DNA from: a virus
Strand: one strand, 5' to 3'
DNA: 47,571 bases
Virus genome (UHGV): UHGV-2008342
The first letter of the stretch is position 1. Every line of letters starts with the position of its first letter. The position numbers and the translations under genes are program-made. Shown in pieces: positions 3,309 through 45,392 of this stretch. The notes below the pieces were generated by a model. The model saw only the letters and a list, made by a program, of their open reading frames with translations, made no database searches and was not told the DNA's origin.

Positions 3309-3884
3309 CTACGGCAGGGCTGGCCATTCAATATCCTGTGCAGTTGACGTATCAACACGGTTCAGCAATACCCGATACTTTTTCCATGCTTCCAGCAACG
3401 AGATTTCTTCCTCCGTTGCAATTTCCAGATCTGCAGCATCCTGAAGCGGCGCAATATGCTCACTGGCTACCTGCATCAGGTTGTTTTTTGTTTCTTCCGC
3501 CTCCCGGATCCGGAACAGTTTTTCTGCTTCCGTATCCTTCACCCAGGCTGTGCCGTTCCACTTCTGAAACTCCCCTTCCGGCGATAACCAGGTAACATTT
3601 TCCGGTAACGGACCGAGTTCAGAAATAAATAACGCGTCGCCGGAAGCCACGTCATAAACCGTTTTACCCCGATGATCTTCAACGAGATGCCACGATGACT
3701 CATCACTGTTGAAAACAGCCACGAAGCCAGCCGGAATATCTGGCGGTGCAATATCGGTACTGTTTGCTGGCAGACCTGTATGAGGCGGAATATATGCATC
3801 ACCTTCACCAATAAATTCATTAGTTCCGGCCAGCAGATTATAAATTTTTATGGTCCGTGGTTGTTCACTCATTCTGAATGCCAT
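3309..3884 (-). CDS. tfa: tail fibre assembly protein (Tfa)
   Basis: 191 aa, Tfa-family sequence; start overlaps the stf stop at 3884. Confidence 0.85.
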
Positions 3885-6800
3885 TATGCAAGCCTCACAA
3901 TATAGTTAAATGCGATGTTTTTGACGGTGTTTTCCGCGTTACCAGCAGCGTTAACGGTGATGGTGTGTCCATGTGAACCAATCGCAACGGAGTGCGTATG
4001 AGCACCAATACCGACAGTATGCGCGTGTGCACCTGCAGATGCTGCTGTGCCGGACAGTGAGTGGCTATGATTACCATCTGTACTGGTATTAGCTAACCAC
4101 CCCGTAGACATACCTACTGAGCCTTGTACACCCCAGGTATTTTGACCTGAGCTTGTATAACCATATTGATAAGTATCTTTAAAAACACTGGGGTTAAATC
4201 GACGGCCATCTCTATGGCTGTGATTACCAGCTGCATTCGTGCTGCCACTTAAACTATGGGTATGCGCACCAGTGTTATTCGTGGATTTAGTGCCGTAATC
4301 AAACGACGATGTGGTTTTCGTCCCCAAATCCGTACTGGATGCGCTGGCGCTGTGGGTATGCGATTTAATGCCGTCCTGTTCCTGAGACAATACGGCCCGA
4401 CCACTGGCAGGTTTGCCCTTAATCGTCCAGCCACGCATATCAGGGATCACGCCTGACGGATAAGCCGCTGCAAGTTTCGGGTATGCAGATTTGTCAAAAG
4501 TCTGCCCCTGCATCAGGGCATAGCCAGACGGAACGGTATCTGATGGCCACGGGATTGGTGCACCGACTGGATAAAACTCTGCAGGAGGATGAGCCGAGGT
4601 GTAAAGCTGCGCCCACGGCGACCAGTTTGCGTCGGTCGTATCCCGTCGTGAACGAATAAATGCCGGAGCATGAGCACCGCTTGTACCACTCCAGCCGATG
4701 AGTAACTCACCTTCGCCAACGGCTGTCATCCCTTTCAGGTGAATGATATTTCCATACGCTGTTGGATATCCGTTGTTATACACCTCGTATAACTCAAGAC
4801 CTGTTGCCCCCTGCGTATTGTCTGTCAGCGCGGTTACCCGACCTTTTGAAGACAGATTAACTGATGATACTGCTGTTCCACCTGACGGTAACGCCCCGAT
4901 CTCTGATGCCGTTGGCTTATTTCTGGAGTTATAGTCCCTTCGCCAGCCAGGTGAATAATCTGTTCCGTGATTAATATAGGTAAACTGGGCGTTAGTTGTT
5001 CCACCACCAGTGGAGGTGGTCGGTGTGGTAATGCGGATCGTCATCGCTGACTTTATCCCCATTACTTCAATGACAGCTCCGGCGAGATGAATATTACCGC
5101 AGTCAGTATCAGTAATGATTTTATTATTGCCATAAGACCAGGAACCCTTGCACATCCAGTAGGGATGGTTAAATGCTCCCTGAGAATCCAGCCACTCGAT
5201 AAACTGTGCAGTCGTCCAGTTTCCTGTTATTGTGCTTACTGACCCACCAAAGGCACGGCAGGCACCAATATTTTTCGTAAAGGTGTCTTTGCCAGGGATA
5301 TCCGCACCGTTCTGATCTTTCTGCAGACGTTTCTCAGCATTGTCATAGGCTGTTTTTACTGCCTTTGGTGTCGCGGCAAGCGTTTCAGACGTGCTGTTGG
5401 TCGCGCTGCTTAGCTGGATTATCCCTTTCTGTGCTGTCGTTGCATCCTGTGCGGTGTATTTCCCGTTAGCCAGGTCATACGCGGCCTTAACGGCTTTTGG
5501 TGTTGCCGCCAGTGACTCGGAAGTGCTGTTAGTCGCACTACTGAGCTGTACTATCCCCTTTTTCGTCGTGCTCGCATCCTCAAGCGCCACGGCGGATGCA
5601 ATATCCTCTGCCCGTTTTGCCGCTGTCTCAGCGCGCGTTGCTGCAGATTCCGCCGTACTTTTGCTCTGAGCTGCTGCCTTCGCACTACCAGCAGCCTCTG
5701 TCGCCTTCGTGGATGCCGTCGTGGCGCTGCCCTTCGCTGCTGACGCCTGTCTGGTCGCCTCATCTTTTGAAGCAGACGCCGATGATGCCGATGACGCCGC
5801 CGAACTGGCGGACGATGCCGCTGCCGTTTTTGAGGATTCTGCACGGGTTTCCGACGCTTTCGCGTTCGTTTCGGATGTCTTCGCTGCGGAAGCTGACCTC
5901 GCTGCTGCCGTGGCCTGCTCAGTGGCTTCGCCAGCCTTCGTTGTGGCTGTTGAAGCGGATGATGCGGCGCTTTCTGCCGATTTTCCGGCGGCGGTGGCAC
6001 TGGCTGAGGCCTGCCCGGCACTTGTTGACGCGGCACTGGCAGACGACGCAGCCGCTGTTTTTGAGCCTGCCGCAGCTGAGGCGCTCTGTCCCGCTGCCGT
6101 CTCAGAAGACCTGGCGTTCGTCTCGGACGTTTTTGCCGCCTTCGCGGAATTTCCTGCCGCCGTTGCCGAGGAAGCTGCGCTACTGGCGCTCAAGGATGCG
6201 TTCGTTTCTGATGATTTCGCTGCCTCTTTTGAGGCCGCCGCATCCCGGGCTGAGGTGGCAGCTTCTGACGCTTTCGTGGTCGCGGTGGATGCAGAAGTGG
6301 CGGCTGATTGTTCTGACGCTGCGGCATTCGTTTCTGACGTTTTCGCCGCACCGGCACTGGTAGCTGCCACGCTTTTTGAGGACTCTGCAGCGGCAGCACT
6401 TTTTGAGGCTTCAGTGGCCTTTGTTGATGCCGTTCCTGCGCTGGAAGACGCTGACTGAGCCGACGAAGCGGCCTGTCCGGCTGACGTGCTGGCTGCACGT
6501 GCTGAATCTGCAGCATCAGTCGCATGGGTTGCCGCCTCACGGGCAGATGTGCTGGCATCACTGGCTGACTTCTTCGCGGCTGCCGTGTTCTGTGCCACCA
6601 CGGACGCGTTACGCGCCACCTCTTCCACCATCAGTTCAAAACGGCGCAGTGCCTCAGGACGGGCATCATCCTCCGTCATGGCACCGAGAAAATCATTCAG
6701 CGTACCGGGTCGGGAATCTTCATACACGGTGATGGTCCCGGCATGTGACGGCGGGAATCCTTCCACCAACAGAATAACGCTGTACTGACCGTACTCAACG

Positions 6801-7686: not shown

Positions 7687-10600
7687 TCAGCTGATACTGA
7701 TGCCTGCGGTGGCTTTCTTCATCACCACAACCAGCAAATCGCTGATACTTGCTGTGGGATACCAGTCATTTACCAGCCATGCTGACACCGAAAACTCCAG
7801 CGTCATGTGGCCGTGACCAGCTGGCATATCAATAACACCACTGTAAATCAGCGTATTATCCAGCGCGGTACGGTTATAAATTTCAGCACCATTTTTCTTC
7901 ACTATCAGGCGGCATGACGAATAAATATCGTTATTCTCCCGCTCATGTTTAGCGCCGCAGAATGCCACCGCCGGAATAACAATTTGCCTGTCAAAAGGCT
8001 GATCGTCATAAATCCTGACGGTAATGGTCCCTGATGGCCACCGCTCCGGTGCCCGGGAGTCCCGCGGGAAAGCCTTACCCACTGTTTTGACAATATCGCC
8101 TTCAATCTGGTTGGCTGACAGTTTCCCTTTAATCTGACAGTTCTCATTTATCGTAACGTTGTTGAGCGTCCCGGAGTTCGCATTCACACTGCCACTGATA
8201 TCTGCATTTTTAGCGGTCAGCTTTCCGTCCGGTGTCAGGGAAAATGCAGGAGGATTACCGCCGCTGGTAATGGTGGGAGCCGTCAGATATTTCAGGAACA
8301 CTTCATTCATGAATATCTGATCACCCTGACCAACAAACATCGGTTTTGTGTTGCCATTTGCAGGATTAATCATCGCAATCCTGTCTGCCGCCAGCAGCAC
8401 CTGACTCTGCATGCCGTCGGGGGTGTTCTCAATACCGGCACCGATACCCGCGATATAAAGGCGTCCGTCCTGCATCTGCTGCAGCTTCACAGCCCACATG
8501 CTGTTCAGATTATTATTTGTATCAACCTGAACCTTCTGTATCTGCTGGATCGCTGCACTCTGGTCTTCCAGTTTCTTATTGACGGTCTGTGTGATTTCAT
8601 TGCTGACATCCGTAATGGATGTCCTGATTTCAGCCAGGTCAGGCGCAAGCTGACCGTTATCAATCTGCGTCCACAGCTCCTGAGCCAGATGGGTTTTCCC
8701 TATCTCGCCTTTGAAAAAATCCAGATAGCCGGATGCGTCATCACTCGGCTGACCAACAGCCTCCACGAATGCCGATTTGCCAACGGTGTTCACACTGCGA
8801 ACGTAAAAATAATAATTATGGCCCGGCCTGATATTGATACTGGCGGCTATCCAGTACAGCGCCGTGCCAAGATAGCGTGCTGTGGTTTCAACCTGCCTGA
8901 TATCCGCAATCCGCTTTTCCGAGAACCAGAACTCAAACTGTACCGTCGGATCATAAACCGCAAGATGCGGCGTGGCGGTTATCTGAAAATAGCCCGGCGT
9001 CAGCTCAATCCGCGACGGCGCTGCCGGTGCGGCAATCCGGAACGATACCGACGCCGGATCGCCCTGCTGCCCCCACGCATTTACTGCCCGGACTGTCAGC
9101 CTGTAGTTCCCCAGAGCCAGTTGTGTGAAGCGGTAAGTGGTTTCCGTCGTCCGGGCCGTGCTGACCAGCCGCTCACTGCCGTCATCCGCTGCCACGGTCA
9201 GGCGAAGCATGAAACTCACGCCCTTCACCACCTTCGGCGTGTCCCAGCGGGCCAGTACCTGATACTCCCCGCTGTCTGCGGTGACTTCGGCAGTCAGGTG
9301 CTGCACTGCTGGCGGCGTGACACCATTCACCGTGCCGCTCTGGTCGCCGTCAAAGTGCGCCCCGTTATCCACGATAGCTTCTTTTTCCGGTACATGCTGC
9401 ACGGCGGTGATGGCATACGTGCCGTCGTCGTTCTCACGGATACTCACGCAGCGGAACAGGCGCTGGCGCAGCGTCGGCAGCTTCAGCCCCCATACGCTGT
9501 ATCCGGCAACGCCGTCAGGAACACGGCTCACTTTTACCTTCACGCCGTCGGTGACGGACTGGACCTCCACGCTGACCGGATTGCCACTTCCGTCAACCAG
9601 GCTTATCAGCGTGGTACCGGAGGATGGCAGCGTGATTTCACGGTCGAGCGTCAGCGTCCGGGTCTGGCTGTTCACCGCCAGCACGCGCCCGCCGGTGCTG
9701 ATCCCCGCATAGTCATCATCGCAGATTTCAATGACATCGCCCGGCACATGGCGAAGCCCTTCCGCACCCACGCTGAAGTCCACGGTCTGCGTTTCCAGTA
9801 GTTCCGTTTTAATCAGCCACAGCCCGGCGCGGTGCGCCTGCCCCCGGCTGGTACAGCCAAAGGCATCCATCTTCGTGACGTTACGACCGTAACGGAGAAT
9901 GGCCTGCGTATCTTCAACAAGCTCTGTCGCCGTCTCCCAGCCGTTATCCGGGTCAATCCAGTTCACCTCAACGGCATTATGACGGTCCTTCAGGGCACTG
10001 AAGCTGTAGCGGAACGGCGCGCCATCATCCGGCATCACCACATTACTGCAGTTATAGGTCCACACCTTATCCGACGGTCGGTCCTGCACGAACGTCAGCG
10101 TCTGCCCGTTCCATACCGGCATACAGCGCATCGCCGAGCAGAAATCACTGAGAACATCCCACGCCTTGCGCTGTGTGGTCAGCCAGGCATTACAGGTGAT
10201 GCGCGGCTCCGTGCCACCAAAGCCATCCGGCACCGACTGGTCGCAATTCTGGCCGATGACATACAGCGCCCATTTGTCCACATCCGCCGCACCGAGACGC
10301 TTCCCCATGCCGTAGCGCGGATGGGTCAGCATATCCCACAGACACCAGGCCATGTTGTTGCTGTATGCTGGCTTAAACGTTCCGTCCCAGATACCGCTGT
10401 ATTGCCGCGTCTGCGGGTTATAGTTCGACGGCACCTGCAGAATGCGCCCGCGAAGATGATAATTACGGCTCACCTGCTGGCTGCCGAACTGTTCCGAGTC
10501 CACCTGCACGCCGACCAGTGCCGTGTTCGGGTAGCACTGTTTCACATCGATGATTTCGGTGTATGACGACCAGAGCGTTTTGTTCTGCAGCTGGTCTGTG

Positions 10601-28388: not shown

Positions 28389-28584
28389 CTTTTTTAAATC
28401 CAACGACAGACGGCTGGCATTTAAGTATTGTGAAATATTATCAAATGTAATCATCATTGATTTACAAAAGATACATTTTGCCCCGAAAGGATTCATGTCA
28501 GAAACATCAAAAGATGATGTTCTATACTGGGAACCATGACAACACGGGCATCTAAAGTGAATATGGTTTGTAATATTGTCTACC

Positions 28585-28797
28585 TCAAAGCGCCACTACA
28601 TGAACAGCGGCAGGACCTTTAGGTCCGTTCTCAATACCAAATTCAACTTCCTGATTCTCAGTTAATGTTTTGAAATCGTTGCTCTGAATTGCTGAGAAAT
28701 GGACAAACACATCTTTGCTGCCATCTTTCGGCGTGATGAAACCAAAACCTTTTTCAGGGTTAAACCATTTCACTAAACCAGTCATTTTGTTAGACAT
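28585..28797 (-). CDS. cspI: CspA-family cold shock protein
   Basis: 70 aa, [37 protein letters not shown] with RNP1/RNP2 motifs. Qin cspI position. Confidence 0.85.
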
Positions 28798-29160
28798 AAT
28801 TATTACCTTTTGAAGAAATTAGCCCTTGGGCAGAATGGTCCGAAAAAAAATATCAGAGAGAAAAACCAACAAGGAAATCTCAAGAGGTACAAATAATAAA
28901 ATTATAACAATGACTGCTTCAGATAAATTTGTAACAAACCAGAACACCATTAACGCATGATTAACCACCCATAGCAAGGATTACTTTTGTAAAGAAAAAC
29001 ACAGCAATGAAAGAATAGCTTTATTTATTAATAATAACGTGTCATTCTGATTAAGACCTTTTATCTTACCCTTAAGATTTCAGGAATTTTGGCTCATGGA
29101 AGAGTCCTTTTTATTTAAATTTTACATTCCGCGATGTAAATGTTCCGATTTAATATTACC

Positions 29161-31186: not shown

Positions 31187-31469
31187 TTGAGATTGTGGTG
31201 CTTTTTGTGGGAGTCATCCACTTACGCACTTTGTTTTGCCATGCCAGCAGTTAGCTTCTGCTGTAAAACTATTCATGCAGCAAACCTGCACTTCACCACA
31301 ATGGTTAGCATACTTTTCCTGATTAAGATTTTGCCAAATATGCTAGCCATTGTTTCATGTATTGGACCTCCTTACTTTTTATTAAAGAGATCCAATATTC
31401 ACTACTCTGTCCGTATCTCTACTCAGGCATCAGCCTTCTTCGTTATCGTATACAGACGAGCGATGAATT

Positions 31470-31685
31470 TTAATCAGTAATGATGACATTTGCTGCTGCA
31501 GGACCTTTAGCACCACTCTCTATAGAGAAGGTAACCTTTTGACCTTCAAATAAGGTTCGATAATTATCATTCTGAATCGCAGAAAAATGCACAAACACAT
31601 CTTTACTACCATCAACAGGAGAAATAAAGCCGAAACCTTTATCAGCGTTAAACCATTTTACTAAACCAGTCATTTTATTTGACAT
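31470..31685 (-). CDS. cspB: CspA-family cold shock protein
   Basis: 71 aa, [37 protein letters not shown]. Confidence 0.85.
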
Positions 31686-31985
31686 TCTACATTCCTTAAC
31701 TTGAGCCTTTCGGCATAAATGGTTTGCATAACAGAAACGACTTCGTACTTAATTGGAGAGACTCAAAGAAGGAATAAGTGAATAACACCTGAAATGAGAA
31801 CTGCTTTAGTAAACTACTTCGTATATCGTCTGTTCTTCAAACCGACGCAATCATTAACGCATAGTTGAACATATGAAGCAATGTTTATTTTAGACATCCA
31901 GCCATCTTCAACCCCATCAAAAAACTATAGCTTTCTTCAGGAACGTGTGTATAGTGCGCCAAGTTATCAGTATTAAGGAATTTTT

Positions 31986-38700: not shown

Positions 38701-38980
38701 ATTACAGCTTGGTGTTAACAATAGCCTGCTTCTCCTTGCCTTTCGGCACGTAAGAGGCTAACCTACATGTGTCTGGCATGAAATTGGCCTCAGATTAATG
38801 TTAAGCGTCTTGCAGGACGCGTAATGTTAACTGGGGCTTTTCTCTACCTGCCGTTGGTGTTCGTGCCCGAGGCAGATAGCCTCAAGCACCCGCAGTCATT
38901 CTACTTAACTAAGATTTCCCCGCAAACCGTTTTTGTCCAGCACAGTAAATATCCAACTAAACCAATGGAGTTCGCTGTAT

Positions 38981-42148: not shown

Positions 42149-42596
42149 TTGCTTTTTCTATAAGTTCGTCAGTTTCACGATCCACTACGGCAGGATCAGC
42201 AAAAAGCAGTCCGGACTCCACCACATCGCCATATTCTTTGTTTAACCCGGCGATCATGCACGTGATGCTTTTTCCGTCAGTAATTTCACGATACAACCTG
42301 AAATCACTAATCCGGATAGCCTCCATAATCGCAGGCACTAGCGCCGTGAACTTTTCACGCTTATCCCTGGTGTCGATAGCCTTCCAGCGTTCGAATATCT
42401 TCACTCGATTAACACCAAGCGCTCGCTGATCAACCGCGCCACCTTCATCTGTGACACGCTGAACATCGATGTTCGGGCGCTCTTTCAAAGCCCAGAATGC
42501 TTCAGTGATTAATATCGTCGCCTGCTCCTGTGTCATTCCTGGTCGACATATCCAGGCATCCAGAGCCTCACGAGCCTGTTCAGGAGTGATTTTCAT
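42075..42596 (-). CDS. early protein in the cII/YdaT position between the cro-like gene and O
   Basis: 173-aa ORF MKITPEQAREALDAWICRPGMTQEQATILITEAFWALKERPNIDVQRV... Its length (96+77) suggests it is the intact form of the K-12 ydfX/ydfW fragments; that is inference. Confidence 0.5.
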   Translation of the reverse strand: MKITPEQAREALDAWICRPGMTQEQATILITEAFWALKERPNIDVQRVTDEGGAVDQRALGVNRVKIFERWKAIDTRDKREKFTALVPAIMEAIRISDFRLYREITDGKSITCMIAGLNKEYGDVVESGLLFADPAVVDRETDELIEKAIAFKLAYRQQYQQKAGWNYEPSFC

Positions 42597-42810
42597 TGTT
42601 CAACCGCCCCGCCCGCTTCGTCTTACGATATTCATCATAAACTTTGGGATCATACTGAAGCTCCCCGCCAGATGCCTCCTGTAGACGCATCGCGCGACCT
42701 TCGGGAACTAAATCCCCTTTCCAGCTATAAAGCGAAGCCAAACGAATACCTGCTGCTTGTGCAAGTTTTGTTTTTGAACCGAAATACAAAAGAGCGTCAG
42801 TTTTAAGCAT
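42580..42810 (-). CDS. dicC: DicC, cro-like regulator
   Basis: 76 aa MLKTDALLYFGSKTKLAQAAGIRLASLYSWKGDLVPEGRAMRLQEASGGELQYDPKVYDEYRK. Divergent from dicA. Confidence 0.85.
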   Translation of the reverse strand: MLKTDALLYFGSKTKLAQAAGIRLASLYSWKGDLVPEGRAMRLQEASGGELQYDPKVYDEYRKTKRAGRLNNENHS

Positions 42811-42893: not shown

Positions 42894-43301
42894 ATGGAAA
42901 CAAAAAATTTAACTATCGGCGAACGCATCAGGTATCGTCGGAAAAACCTCAAACACACCCAAAGGTCTCTTGCTAAAGCCCTGAAAATCTCCCATGTGTC
43001 TGTATCACAATGGGAACGGGGTGATAGTGAACCTACAGGGAAGAACCTTTTTGCCCTCAGCAAAGTATTGCAATGCTCACCAACATGGATTCTATTTGGC
43101 GATGAAGACAAGCAACCAACACCACCTGTTGAGAAGCCAGTTGCCTTATCCCCCAAAGAACTAGAGCTCCTTGAGCTGTTTAATGCACTGCCAGAATCAG
43201 AACAGGATACCCAGCTCGCCGAAATGCGAGCTCGAGTAAGAAACTTCAATAAACTCTTTGAAGAATTACTAAAAGCCCGTCAGCGGACAAATAAAAGATA
43301 A
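42894..43301 (+). CDS. dicA: DicA, HTH-XRE repressor
   Basis: 135 aa METKNLTIGERIRYRRKNLKHTQRSLAKALKISHVSVSQWERGDSEPTGKNLFALSKVLQCSPTWILFG. Confidence 0.9.
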   Translation: METKNLTIGERIRYRRKNLKHTQRSLAKALKISHVSVSQWERGDSEPTGKNLFALSKVLQCSPTWILFGDEDKQPTPPVEKPVALSPKELELLELFNALPESEQDTQLAEMRARVRNFNKLFEELLKARQRTNKR

Positions 43302-43467
43302 CATCATCAATGAGTTATCTTTTACCACATCAATTATGTTAGCTATAGCATACAAAATCACTTGACCGATATGTTAGTCATGGCTAATCTTGTTTGCATC
43401 AACACACCGCACGGTGTTCTCAGCAAACAGTTCCGCTACCCCAGCGTTAAGGGGAAATGAGGTCAGC

Positions 43468-43623
43468 ATGGATACTATCGATCTTGGCAACAACGAATCT
43501 CTGGTGTACGGCGTGTTTCCAAACCAGGACGGTACGTTCACCGCGATGACGTATACCAAAAGCAAAACGTTTAAAACCGAAAATGGTGCCCGTCGCTGGC
43601 TGGAAAGAAACTCAGGTGAGTGA
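43468..43623 (+). CDS. ydfA: YdfA
   Basis: 51 aa MDTIDLGNNESLVYGVFPNQDGTFTAMTYTKSKTFKTENGARRWLERNSGE. ATG at 43468 with a GGGGAAATGAGG SD. Confidence 0.8.
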   Translation: MDTIDLGNNESLVYGVFPNQDGTFTAMTYTKSKTFKTENGARRWLERNSGE

Positions 43624-43624
43624 T

Positions 43625-43753
43625 ATGGATTTCGACACAATCATGGAAAAGGCTTACGAAGAATACTTCGAAGGTCTTGCCGACGGCGAAGAAGCTCTCA
43701 GCTTCAACGAATTTAAACAGGCGCTTTCCAGTTCGGCAAAATCTAACGGCTGA
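43625..43753 (+). CDS. ydfB: YdfB
   Basis: 42 aa MDFDTIMEKAYEEYFEGLADGEEALSFNEFKQALSSSAKSNG. Starts 2 nt after the ydfA stop. Confidence 0.75.
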   Translation: MDFDTIMEKAYEEYFEGLADGEEALSFNEFKQALSSSAKSNG

Positions 43754-43782
43754 TAAGCGAAACAGCACCGCGAGGAATCAGT

Positions 43783-44001
43783 ATGCAGAAACGAGAACCC
43801 GTCATCATCGCGCCAGACTATACCGATGATGAACTTTATGAGTGGATGCGCCAGAAAATTAATGCAGCGCAGGATCTGAAATGGGCCAATGAAGCCAGGG
43901 CTAAGCAGGCTGAAAATCTGTCCGCTCTGGAGCAGGATATCACCAGGCTGGAAAAAGCAGCGGCATTAAGCATTGCAAGAATGATTACATACCCACGTTA
44001 A
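43783..44001 (+). CDS. ydfC: YdfC
   Basis: 72 aa MQKREPVIIAPDYTDDELYEWMRQKINAAQDLKWANEARAKQAENLSALEQDITRLEKAAALSIARMITYPR. Confidence 0.8.
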   Translation: MQKREPVIIAPDYTDDELYEWMRQKINAAQDLKWANEARAKQAENLSALEQDITRLEKAAALSIARMITYPR

Positions 44002-44023
44002 TAGCTAACCAACGAGGCTAATA

Positions 44024-44431
44024 ATGGAATTTAAAGATTTACCAAAAGAAATCCAGACAATTGCTGCAACGACTCTCGGTGATAGTCTGGTGAAAATTGA
44101 CCCGGCATACACCAAAAAAGAAACCATCGATAATATGGTTTGTAATGTGCGCAATGCTTTTTCTGGGCTATATGGTTCTGATAATCAAAAGCAGGAAAGC
44201 GATGTTAATAAACGGGTAATTTCTGTTTGCGTGAATGGCCATGTTCTTTCATCAATCAAAACAGAAACGGCGACAGTCTTCGATTGCCTTTGCATTGTAC
44301 AGAGCCTTGTTGATGCCCTGTTTCGTTCAGTGAATTTAGAAAATGATGCAAATCTGCGAGGGCGCACAATAGCACATCCATATGCACATACTTTAGGCTC
44401 TGTGGATATCAAAGATCCCACAAATCTTTAA
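44024..44431 (+). CDS. hypothetical protein A (135 aa), part of a low-GC insert in the dicB operon
   Basis: ORF MEFKDLPKEIQTIAATTLGDSLVKIDPAYTKKETIDNMVCNVRNAFSGLYGSDNQKQ... No family recognised. From memory, not present between ydfC and dicF in K-12. Confidence 0.5.
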   Translation: MEFKDLPKEIQTIAATTLGDSLVKIDPAYTKKETIDNMVCNVRNAFSGLYGSDNQKQESDVNKRVISVCVNGHVLSSIKTETATVFDCLCIVQSLVDALFRSVNLENDANLRGRTIAHPYAHTLGSVDIKDPTNL

Positions 44432-44642
44432 TGAAATAGTTAACGCGAATTGTACTTGCTCTTTCAGTTGCTTTCAGAATACGCGTTGAAACTGCTGGCG
44501 GTAATTTGGTATTCCATTTATTAAAATCATGCCCGGGAAAGTACTCTTCGAAAATACTTTTAACTGCAGACTCGCCTATTGAAATGCTGCTTACCATGCG
44601 ATTTTGATAAAGGCATTTAGCAATAAGAGTTGATTTTAACAT
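44409..44642 (-). CDS. hypothetical protein B (77 aa), convergent with A and overlapping it by 23 bp
   Basis: ORF MLKSTLIAKCLYQNRMVSSISIGESAVKSIFEEYFPGHDFNKWNTKLPPAVSTRILKATERASTIRVNYFIKDLWDL. Antisense to the surrounding early operon. Confidence 0.45.
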   Translation of the reverse strand: MLKSTLIAKCLYQNRMVSSISIGESAVKSIFEEYFPGHDFNKWNTKLPPAVSTRILKATERASTIRVNYFIKDLWDL

Positions 44643-44974
44643 TCACCCTCCTGAGGGTTGGTAATTAAGGAGTTCTCCACGGGTGAAGTGGAGTGCGTGC
44701 GCCGGACACGGGTGAACATCCGGCACTGACAGTTTACTGAAAGGATATATCCCTGAAAAGTCAGGGCATAACGCGAAAGCGCACGGCGAGGTAGCTGGTT
44801 CATAGATAGCCTGTCGTTAAATTTTCGTCGACCGTGCGCTTCCGGTTGTGGCAATCCGCGAAATGGCGCGGCGGTAAGTATGGCGGGGTTATTCCTTACC
44901 CCCATTGGTGGCACCGGGTTGTCAGGTTGACCATACGCCTGAGTGACAACCCCGCTACAACAACCCATGTTGAT

Positions 44975-45028
44975 TACCTTTTGGCGGGTATCCGTTTTTT
45001 GTTTTCCCTTGTGATACCCGCCCTTTTT
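44975..45028 (+). ncRNA. dicF: DicF-like small RNA (variant sequence); 5' end approximate
   Basis: Lies between ydfC and dicB. Terminator hairpin GGCGGGTATC...GATACCCGCC followed by CTTTTT; the downstream sequence AAAGTGAATTTTGTGATG matches my recollection of the K-12 dicF 3' flank. The body differs from the K-12 DicF sequence as I recall it. Confidence 0.5.
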
Positions 45029-45209
45029 AAAGTGAATTTTGTGATGCGGTGAATGCGGCTCAGCGCACGCGGAACAGTTAAAAAGCGATTAGTTCCCCCG
45101 TATCGGGTGTTTATGGGTTTCCCTGTATCCGGCGTTAATTGTTAACTGGTTAACGTCACCTGGAGGCACCAGGCACCGCATCACAAAATTCATTGTTGAG
45201 GACGCGATA

Positions 45210-45392
45210 ATGGAAACGTTATTACCAAACGTCAATACGTCTGAAGGTTGTTTTGAAATTGGTGTCAGAATCAGTAACCCTGTATTTACTGAAGATGCCA
45301 TTAATAAGAGAAAACACGAACGGGAGCTATTAAATCAAATATGCATTGTTTCAATGCTGGCCCGTTTACGCCTGATGCAAAAAGGACGCTGA
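45210..45392 (+). CDS. dicB: DicB cell-division inhibitor
   Basis: 60 aa METLLPNVNTSEGCFEIGVRISNPVFTEDAINKRKHERELLNQICIVSMLARLRLMQKGR. Confidence 0.85.
   Translation: METLLPNVNTSEGCFEIGVRISNPVFTEDAINKRKHERELLNQICIVSMLARLRLMQKGR

Follow-up and report, generated by a model that had tools for sequence, protein, structure and literature searches.

A candidate small RNA with a body diverged from DicF in the dicF slot of a Qin-like prophage

Introduction

DicF is among the oldest known bacterial small RNAs (sRNAs) and has become a model for prophage RNAs that rewire host cell division, metabolism, and EHEC virulence. Four copies of dicF in EHEC were reportedly described by Melson and Kendall in 2019.

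In Escherichia coli K-12, DicF derives from the polycistronic transcript of dicBp, a promoter repressed by DicA, and RNase III sets the 5′ end of a 190-nt species while RNase E sets that of the 53-nt form (PMC10448788). Rho-independent termination yields the 3′ end of the 53-nt form, and RNase III generates that of a 72-nt form (PMC5069750). According to genetic data, the 5′ end of DicF pairs with xylR and the 3′ part with ftsZ and pykA, whereby the 5′ stretch GGUGACGUU is used for xylR and the 3′ stretch UACUCCGUGACUG for pykA and ftsZ (PMC5069750). That DicF-like sequences are present in many prophages has been known since the 1990s, as stated in work cited in PMC5069750. Prophage sRNA families that combine a constant part with a variable one have been found in EHEC, where AgvB and AsxR were described as sponges for FnrS and GcvB (PMC4104026).

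Here, we analyzed the virus genome UHGV-2008342, a stretch of 47,571 nt that is referred to as the window in the following. A sequence-only reading of this DNA had placed a dicF-like sRNA with a diverged body at positions 44975–45028. The locus was compared with the dicF locus of K-12, with the curated DicF family model, and with further alleles of the same slot in other prophages and in E. coli genomes.

Materials and methods

As reference, the dicF locus of K-12 MG1655 (NC_000913; stretch L001, in which dicF is annotated at L001 4383–4435) was used, and 530 nt were aligned to the window. Cleavage positions in K-12 were computed by counting back from annotated dicF using the published RNA lengths. 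Target pairing was evaluated by windowed duplex energies plus opening energies, i.e. corrected for accessibility, which recovers the known sites of K-12 DicF; whole-length RNAduplex energies were uninformative owing to huge interior loops. Alleles of the slot were collected from IMG/VR in two pattern scans, yielding 197 loci with 42 distinct alleles.

Results and discussion

Operon setting of the sRNA slot

By NCBIfam and Pfam matches (DicC, DicA, YdfA, DicB, and DUF1482/YdfD), the region from 44.7 to 45.4 kb of the window was identified as a dicBF-type operon. In the immunity region, dicC for a Cro-like regulator is located at 42580–42810 on the minus strand (NCBIfam NF007282 DicC, 159.5 bits; Pfam P22_Cro), followed by the gene of the repressor DicA at 42894–43301 on the plus strand (NCBIfam NF007257 DicA, 233.4 bits). 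By analogy with K-12, this DicA would regulate the operon of the window. The upstream operon ORFs at 43390–44642 comprise a ydfA-like (Pfam DUF1391), a ydfB-like, and a ydfC-like ORF as well as two extra ORFs, and they were assigned to the PHROG families 2061, 1744, 1363, and 10348, all of unknown function. The extra ORFs lie in about 640 bp (44024–44642) which are absent from K-12 between the ydfC-like ORF and the leader; one encodes 135 aa on the plus strand (44024–44431; phrog_1363) and the other 77 aa on the minus strand (44409–44642; phrog_10348).

The sRNA slot is preceded by a leader at 44680–44961 on the plus strand with about 95% identity to K-12 in the alignment. Because this alignment contains a 2-nt indel, we regard the leader as non-coding and the 110-aa minus-strand ORF at 44636–44968 not as a gene. 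The leader of about 280 nt is strongly conserved across prophages and contains many helices (e.g. 44774–44786/44832–44844 and 44905–44924/44944–44963); in a covariation check, the variation upstream of the slot was too sparse to inform on structure. Downstream of the slot, dicB for the 60-aa cell-division inhibitor is located at 45210–45392 on the plus strand (NCBIfam NF049927, 126.5 bits; Pfam DicB, 127.5 bits), and the DUF1482/YdfD protein was identified in the same operon. Synteny, the NCBIfam and Pfam matches, and the flank identity described below confirm the assignment made by the sequence-only reading, which had recognized the dicF locus: the element lies in the dicF slot of a dicBF operon.

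Elsewhere in the window, four Rfam matches above the gathering score were found on the minus strand (3343–3541, 28558–28943, 31454–31846, and 38720–38891), namely IS009 RNA, two cspA-type thermoregulator leaders, and a sok antitoxin RNA. We take the cspA-type leaders to belong to cold-shock genes like cspB and cspI of Qin, and sok to a hok/sok-type locus as at hokD. All of these elements are consistent with a Qin-like prophage.

Divergence from K-12 dicF

In the alignment with K-12, both flanks of dicF were about 90–100% identical, and the segment 44962–45017 was found to be replaced. Upstream, about 260 nt (44700–44961) are nearly identical to K-12, and from CCGCCCTTTTTAAAGTG at 45018 through to the start of dicB the window again resembles K-12, save for a second small divergent patch at about 45085–45115. 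Within 44962–45017, alignment was possible only over an island at 44980–44992 with the sequence TTTGGCGG(G)TATC. Common to K-12 DicF and the window are therefore only this TTTGGCGG(G)TATC, the CCGCC stem base, and the U-run.

These results refine what had been read from the sequence. It had been stated that the upstream 30 nt or so differ from K-12; the body indeed differs, in a block of about 56 nt that starts 13 nt earlier. The terminator had been described as matching, which holds for the five basal pairs GGCGG/CCGCC and the U-run and not for the upper stem and the loop. The downstream flank had been assigned correctly to the dicF locus, being near-identical up to the start of dicB with the exception of the patch at about 45085–45115. 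Identity to canonical DicF was not found across the body in this alignment.

The Rfam DicF model (RF00039) scored 76.7 bits (E 4e-17) on the K-12 stretch, which served as positive control. It gave no match in 44600–45300 at E ≤ 10, and none at the gathering threshold (48 bits) in the whole window. By the curated Rfam model, the RNA of the window is not a member of the DicF family.

Structure and predicted processing of the variant RNA

The sequence of 44975–45028, UACCUUUUGGCGGGUAUCCGUUUUUUGUUUUCCCUUGUGAUACCCGCCCUUUUU, comprises a perfect 10-bp stem, a 20-nt loop, and a C followed by five U. The main hairpin (44983–45022, plus strand) is an inverted repeat with 100% complementarity, formed by the stem arms GGCGGGUAUC (44983–44992) and GAUACCCGCC (45013–45022) and the U/C-rich loop CGUUUUUUGUUUUCCCUUGU of 20 nt (44993–45012). 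Folding of the RNA gave −18.5 kcal/mol (z −5.4) as compared to −6.9 ± 2.2 kcal/mol for dinucleotide shuffles, and 0 of 200 shuffles were as stable. The pattern of the scaffold occurs once in the window at an expectation of 0.01. The observed hairpin and scaffold are not due to chance.

According to the alignment, the C + U5 tract at 45023–45028 (plus strand) is the same as in K-12, where this terminator yields the 3′ end of the 53-nt DicF (PMC5069750); by analogy, the tract is predicted to be an intrinsic-terminator tail as well as a 3′ Hfq-binding tail. With its perfect 10-bp stem followed by CUUUUU, the sequence has the hairpin and U-run of a Rho-independent terminator. It also has the parts of an Hfq-sRNA module (ACCUUUU, hairpin, and CUUUUU), which is invariant in all alleles of the slot, and its U-rich stretch, GC-clamped hairpin, and U tail together resemble a typical Hfq-binding module.

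In the fold of 44956–45028, a small 5-bp hairpin, CAACA/UGUUG (44958–44972, plus strand), marks where the divergent block starts on its 5′ side; this hairpin occurs in the alleles termed type B, to which the window belongs, and type C (see below). It is followed by the A/U-rich 10-nt linker AUUACCUUUU (44973–44982, plus strand), which is unpaired in the fold and lies at the position where RNase E generates the 5′ end of DicF in K-12. The linker is predicted to contain the RNase E entry site and to provide the short 5′ tail and the U-rich Hfq-module element of the mature RNA.

Helices flank the slot on both sides. Upstream, a 13-bp helix (inverted repeat 44774–44786/44832–44844, plus strand) is the homologue of the K-12 helix L001 4181–4193/4239–4251, in whose 3′ arm the 5′ end of the 190-nt precursor computes to L001 4246. 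Downstream, the structured leader of dicB (45029–45195, plus strand) is closed by a perfect 19-bp helix (45033–45051/45174–45192) that is 100% complementary, since G-C pairs stand here in place of two G-U pairs of K-12. The K-12 homologue of this helix (L001 4445–4463/4574–4592) contains, in its arm 4445–4463, the computed position (L001 4454) at which RNase III forms the 3′ end of the 72-nt DicF. From the conservation of the helices and the linker, we infer that the variant would be processed like DicF.

The dicB leader also gave a sub-threshold match to the Rfam family STnc100 (RF02076; 34.3 bits vs a gathering score of 47), here at 45035–45187 and likewise in K-12 (leader at L001 4433–4642); this match concerns the dicB/kil leader and not the sRNA hairpin. 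The apical part of the leader (about 45085–45115) is the second patch diverged from K-12. In Rac-like phages, kil is preceded by the same structured leader as dicB.

Predicted target pairing

The xylR seed GGUGACGUU at the 5′ end of DicF is absent from the variant, and the 3′ region UACUCCGUGACUG is replaced by UUUUCCCUUGUGAU. For xylR, the predicted net energy was −13.1 kcal/mol with DicF (GGUGACGUU with AACGUCACC) and about −0.2 kcal/mol, or positive, with the variant. For pykA, the values were −12.5 kcal/mol with DicF (UACUCCGUGACUG with CAGUCAACGGAGUA) and −2.3 to −3.3 kcal/mol with the variant. In these predictions, the xylR and pykA seeds are clearly lost. The sequence-only reading had suspected that the target-pairing regions may be altered; both of them turned out to be replaced, along with loss of the predicted xylR and pykA pairing.

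Pairing with ftsZ, which it had also raised, was predicted at −4.1/−5.2 kcal/mol for DicF and −0.4/−1.5 kcal/mol for the variant, whose loop has discontinuous complementarity to ftsZ (UUUUCC/GGAGAG and UUGUG/CACAA). When tails and loops were shuffled with the stems kept, the DicF value of −5.2 was matched by 16 of 40 shuffles and the variant value of −1.5 by 32 of 40, so this test has no power even for the validated DicF duplex.

A modular family of slot alleles

All 42 alleles from IMG/VR are composed of C[CT][AC]TGTT, a variable 5′ segment of 8–18 nt, AC[CG]TTT(T)GGCGG, a variable upper stem and loop, and CCGCC N TTTTT AAAGTG. The invariant scaffold of the RNA is thus AC[CG]UUU(U)-GGCGG...CCGCC-N-UUUUU. 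At least eight different 5′ segments were found, among them ATCAATTTTCTGGTGACG of DicF, GATTACCT of the window, and six more. The hairpin tops fall into at least four types, A (DicF), A′, B (window), and C, and a fifth is present upstream of kilR in Rac-SA53. The 5′ segment of the window was combined with hairpin B in 31 loci and with hairpin C in 13 loci, which points to recombination at the shared TTTGGCGG. The type of the slot sRNA is independent of the downstream gene, as each type is located upstream of several DicB alleles or a KilR-like ORF.

The hairpin variants (22 of 22) fold at −12.6 to −20.2 kcal/mol; their five basal pairs are invariant, and pairs 6–11 change on both sides between types. 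With the Rfam DicF model, types C and A′ scored 33–45 bits (gathering 48), and nothing was obtained for type B. Column identity between types A and B was 0.41–0.47 at 44965–44979 and 44995–45009 and 0.9–1.0 in the flanks, where the value is partly imposed by the search pattern; in the leader from 44830 onward, it was 0.8–0.95. Within type B (27 non-identical loci), the 5′ segment and the stems were 0.97–1.00 identical. The type B loop had a column identity of 0.67, caused mainly by U-run indels with few substitutions, and the constant part CGUU..UUG.UUCCC..GU. This loop variability is looser than a strict seed would show and counts against the explanation favored below.

Distribution of type B

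Canonical DicF was found in 3973 of 5426 complete E. coli genomes (73%) at 6697 places. The 73-nt type B cassette was present in 195 of these genomes (~3%), in 157 of them at ≥80% coverage, and 82 records were ≥99% identical. For comparison, one form of type C (from L130) was present in 213 of the 5426 genomes at ≥80% coverage. Carriers of type B seen include O121, O139, and O141 strains and porcine ETEC isolates. The cassette resides in Qin-like (window) and Rac-like backbones (O121 RM8352, PP818812), upstream of dicB or kil; that of E. coli O121 RM8352, found at 1076330–1076400 of NZ_CP028110, is identical and lies in a Rac-like backbone with racR, ydaS, ydaT, and an exonuclease.

Among deposited phages, none but PP818812 carried type B, and in the GTDB species-representative genomes the type B hairpin was not found. 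The generic scaffold was restricted in the GTDB search to Escherichia and Shigella, plus two contigs of metagenome-assembled genomes (MAGs). These MAGs, assigned to Veillonella parvula (JAGZPX010000007.1) and Collinsella sp. (JAIIUG010000151.1), have the exact Escherichia slot scaffold and flank, and their contigs are most likely mis-binned E. coli prophage contigs.

In the RefSeq records sampled, no feature was annotated over the slot for any allele, including canonical DicF outside K-12, and the sole overlap was one truncated DicF match on a hypothetical protein. Because no cassette type is annotated in these records, the missing annotation is uninformative about type B. In the searchable literature, the type B sequence strings gave only unrelated 12-mer matches, and no description of type B or of a seed/hairpin-swapping architecture of the dicF slot was found. 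Type B appears to be a previously unannotated variant of DicF-slot RNA. It is missed by the Rfam DicF model and, if functional, would be invisible to current annotation.

Comparison with known systems

The closest described system is DicF itself (Qin, K-12 b1574, RF00039). Like type B, it is encoded in the dicBF operon, in the slot that has the ydfC-side leader on one side and dicB on the other, and it shares with type B the flanking helices with the inferred RNase III positions, the scaffold TTTGGCGG...CCGCC-N-TTTTT, a similar size, and a vestigial similarity of the loop, GUUUU.C...GUGA. Unlike DicF, type B has no 5′ seed UUUCUGGUGACG, its upper stem and loop are replaced with no Rfam match remaining, and its hairpin is perfect and more stable (−18.5 vs −15.9 kcal/mol). 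It also differs by the lost predicted pairing with xylR and pykA and by the weakened one with ftsZ, for which the test is without power. The types A′ and C and the hairpin before kilR in Rac-SA53 have the scaffold, the flanks, and the position upstream of dicB or kil in common with type B, whose 5′ segment GATTACCT also occurs unchanged in some type C alleles; all three differ from type B in the upper stem and loop.

AgvB and AsxR (EcOnc01-03) of EHEC are likewise short (51–60 nt), Hfq-associated prophage RNAs with a constant part and a variable part conferring specificity. In contrast to type B, which belongs to the early (dicB) operon, they are expressed from their own promoters and map to the moron site downstream of PR′. 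Their 5′ end is variable and their 3′ 42 nt are conserved, and there is no sequence similarity to type B. Identity of type B with AgvB or AsxR was rejected in view of their location downstream of PR′ and their different architecture (PMC4104026).

Proposed biogenesis and alternative explanations

The explanation that we favor, and which we consider fairly probable, is that type B is a natural allele of the dicF slot, located in an early operon under DicA repression within a Qin-like lambdoid prophage, and that it has DicF-like biogenesis and altered targets. Judged from the sequence comparisons, it is probably a diverged DicF-slot sRNA that is still expressed, and probably a small RNA with targets other than those of DicF. 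The operon transcript would start downstream of dicA, and RNase III would cut the conserved helix at about 44839 to give a precursor of about 185–190 nt. RNase E would then cut in the A/U-rich linker 44973–44982. The 3′ end would result from intrinsic termination at the hairpin and U5 (45028) or, about 19 nt farther downstream, from an RNase III cut within the 19-bp helix. A mature RNA of about 50–55 nt would be expected. The main hairpin may double as a partial terminator before dicB. Compared to DicF, the 5′ seed has shrunk to some 9 nt (UUACCUUUU), and the 20-nt U/C-rich loop has taken the place of the upper stem and loop. The type B RNA would no longer repress xylR or pykA and would pair with ftsZ weakly at best. 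Any regulation in trans would most likely proceed via the open loop with its conserved core UUCCC..GU, or else via the 5′ tail, which is short and resembles an anti-Shine-Dalgarno sequence. The constant scaffold would serve processing, termination, and Hfq binding, and the parts giving specificity would have been exchanged. In this sense, we infer transcription, processing, Hfq binding, and trans-acting regulation of type B.

Two further points count against this explanation or leave it less distinctive: the 5′ tail after the putative RNase E cut is very short, and the stem base, the U-run, and the flanking helices are equally expected if only termination and operon processing mattered. The main rival, which we regard as rather unlikely, is accordingly a degenerate allele in which DicF function is lost and only cis roles are left, i.e. 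a terminator or attenuator before dicB and a processing landmark, with no function in trans. It would account for the fact that GGCGG/CCGCC, the U-run, and the flanking helices, which are the invariant parts, are precisely what termination and processing require, and it agrees with the varying length of the U-run in the type B loop, with the 5′ segment of type B being the shortest of all (8 nt vs 10–18 nt), and with the minority status of type B at about 3% of the genomes vs 73% for DicF. Decay is at odds with the 97–100% conservation of the perfect stem and the 5′ segment among 27 non-identical loci in different backbones, and with the tandem duplication of the cassette in one phage (PP818812). 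The module typical for Hfq-dependent sRNAs, consisting of a U-rich stretch, a hairpin, and a U-tail, is moreover intact, and an open loop of 20 nt is needless and unusual for a terminator.

An AgvB-like decoy for GcvB, which would act via the C/A-rich UACAACAACCCA (44956–44967; exact CACAACA in some alleles), is very unlikely. ACAACAAC is perfectly complementary to GUUGUUGU in the R1 region of GcvB, CACAACA is the consensus of GcvB targets (PMC4104026), and the motif is present in type B and type C alleles and absent from canonical DicF loci. However, it is locked in the 5-bp hairpin CAACA/UGUUG upstream of the putative RNase E cut, the best local duplex of −16.1 kcal/mol was equalled by 9 of 15 shuffles, and AgvB and AsxR map elsewhere in the prophage, downstream of PR′ (PMC4104026).

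Still less probable is that the block encodes the 15-residue peptide MLITFWRVSVFCFPL (ATG at 44967 to TGA at 45014). The frame is open, and one subvariant shorter by 3 nt ends at the same TGA, yet an upstream Shine-Dalgarno sequence is missing, a variant with a 1-nt indel in the loop shifts the frame, and the type C frames starting from the same ATG end after 5 to >25 codons. The mini-ORF was rejected for its lack of a Shine-Dalgarno sequence and for a frame that is unconserved among alleles. That the RNA is an ordinary DicF, with the K-12 sequence merely misremembered in the sequence-only reading, has practically no probability left and was ruled out, as only the position, the stem base, and the U-run are in common while the body is unalignable to NC_000913 and Rfam gave no match at E ≤ 10.

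Beyond the favored explanation of type B as a dicF-slot allele with altered targets, we tentatively propose a wider view, which is possible though on balance doubtful. The dicF slot might be a recombining cassette, in which a fixed scaffold for processing, Hfq binding, and termination is combined with swappable 5′ segments (at least eight) and hairpin tops (at least four to five). Lambdoid prophages of Escherichia would then possess a polymorphic repertoire of host-directed sRNAs before the gene of a division inhibitor (dicB or kil), with type B as a functional member having its own regulon. The slot would provide a series of natural sRNAs in which the seeds are swapped and the scaffold stays constant, suited to studies on the evolution of target specificity. 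If a few percent of E. coli carry a slot RNA lacking the DicF seeds, the presence of a dicBF operon does not imply DicF-type regulation there.

Further cassettes in other prophages

Some individual loci deserve mention. In PP818812.1, two tandem type B cassettes are located upstream of kil (3916–4075). The early region of this phage is Rac-like and of the E. coli type, with a DicA-like repressor, ydaT, and a RecE-like exonuclease; the record is labelled 'Actinobacillus phage vB_Apl-pPE4', and this host label is doubtful. In Rac-SA53 (KU052037.1), an unannotated slot hairpin composed of GGCGGCATCAG-TTTTTTCTTGAAGTTCGG-CTGATGTCCGCC and a T-run was found at about 1160–1220, with a different 5′ flank and the same leader, followed by kilR.

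Downstream of type C cassettes, genes of isrK and C4 antisense RNA were detected above the Rfam gathering scores in three loci (L139 1123–1725, L143 2874–3062, and L117 4834–5022), corresponding to P1/P7-type immunity and a Gifsy-like IsrK module. The IMG/VR contig L178 contains a canonical DicF cassette with dicB at 7796–7872 and, 1.8 kb downstream, a second leader with a type C cassette at 9591–9657; with an apparent IS element in between, it appears to consist of two joined prophage fragments.
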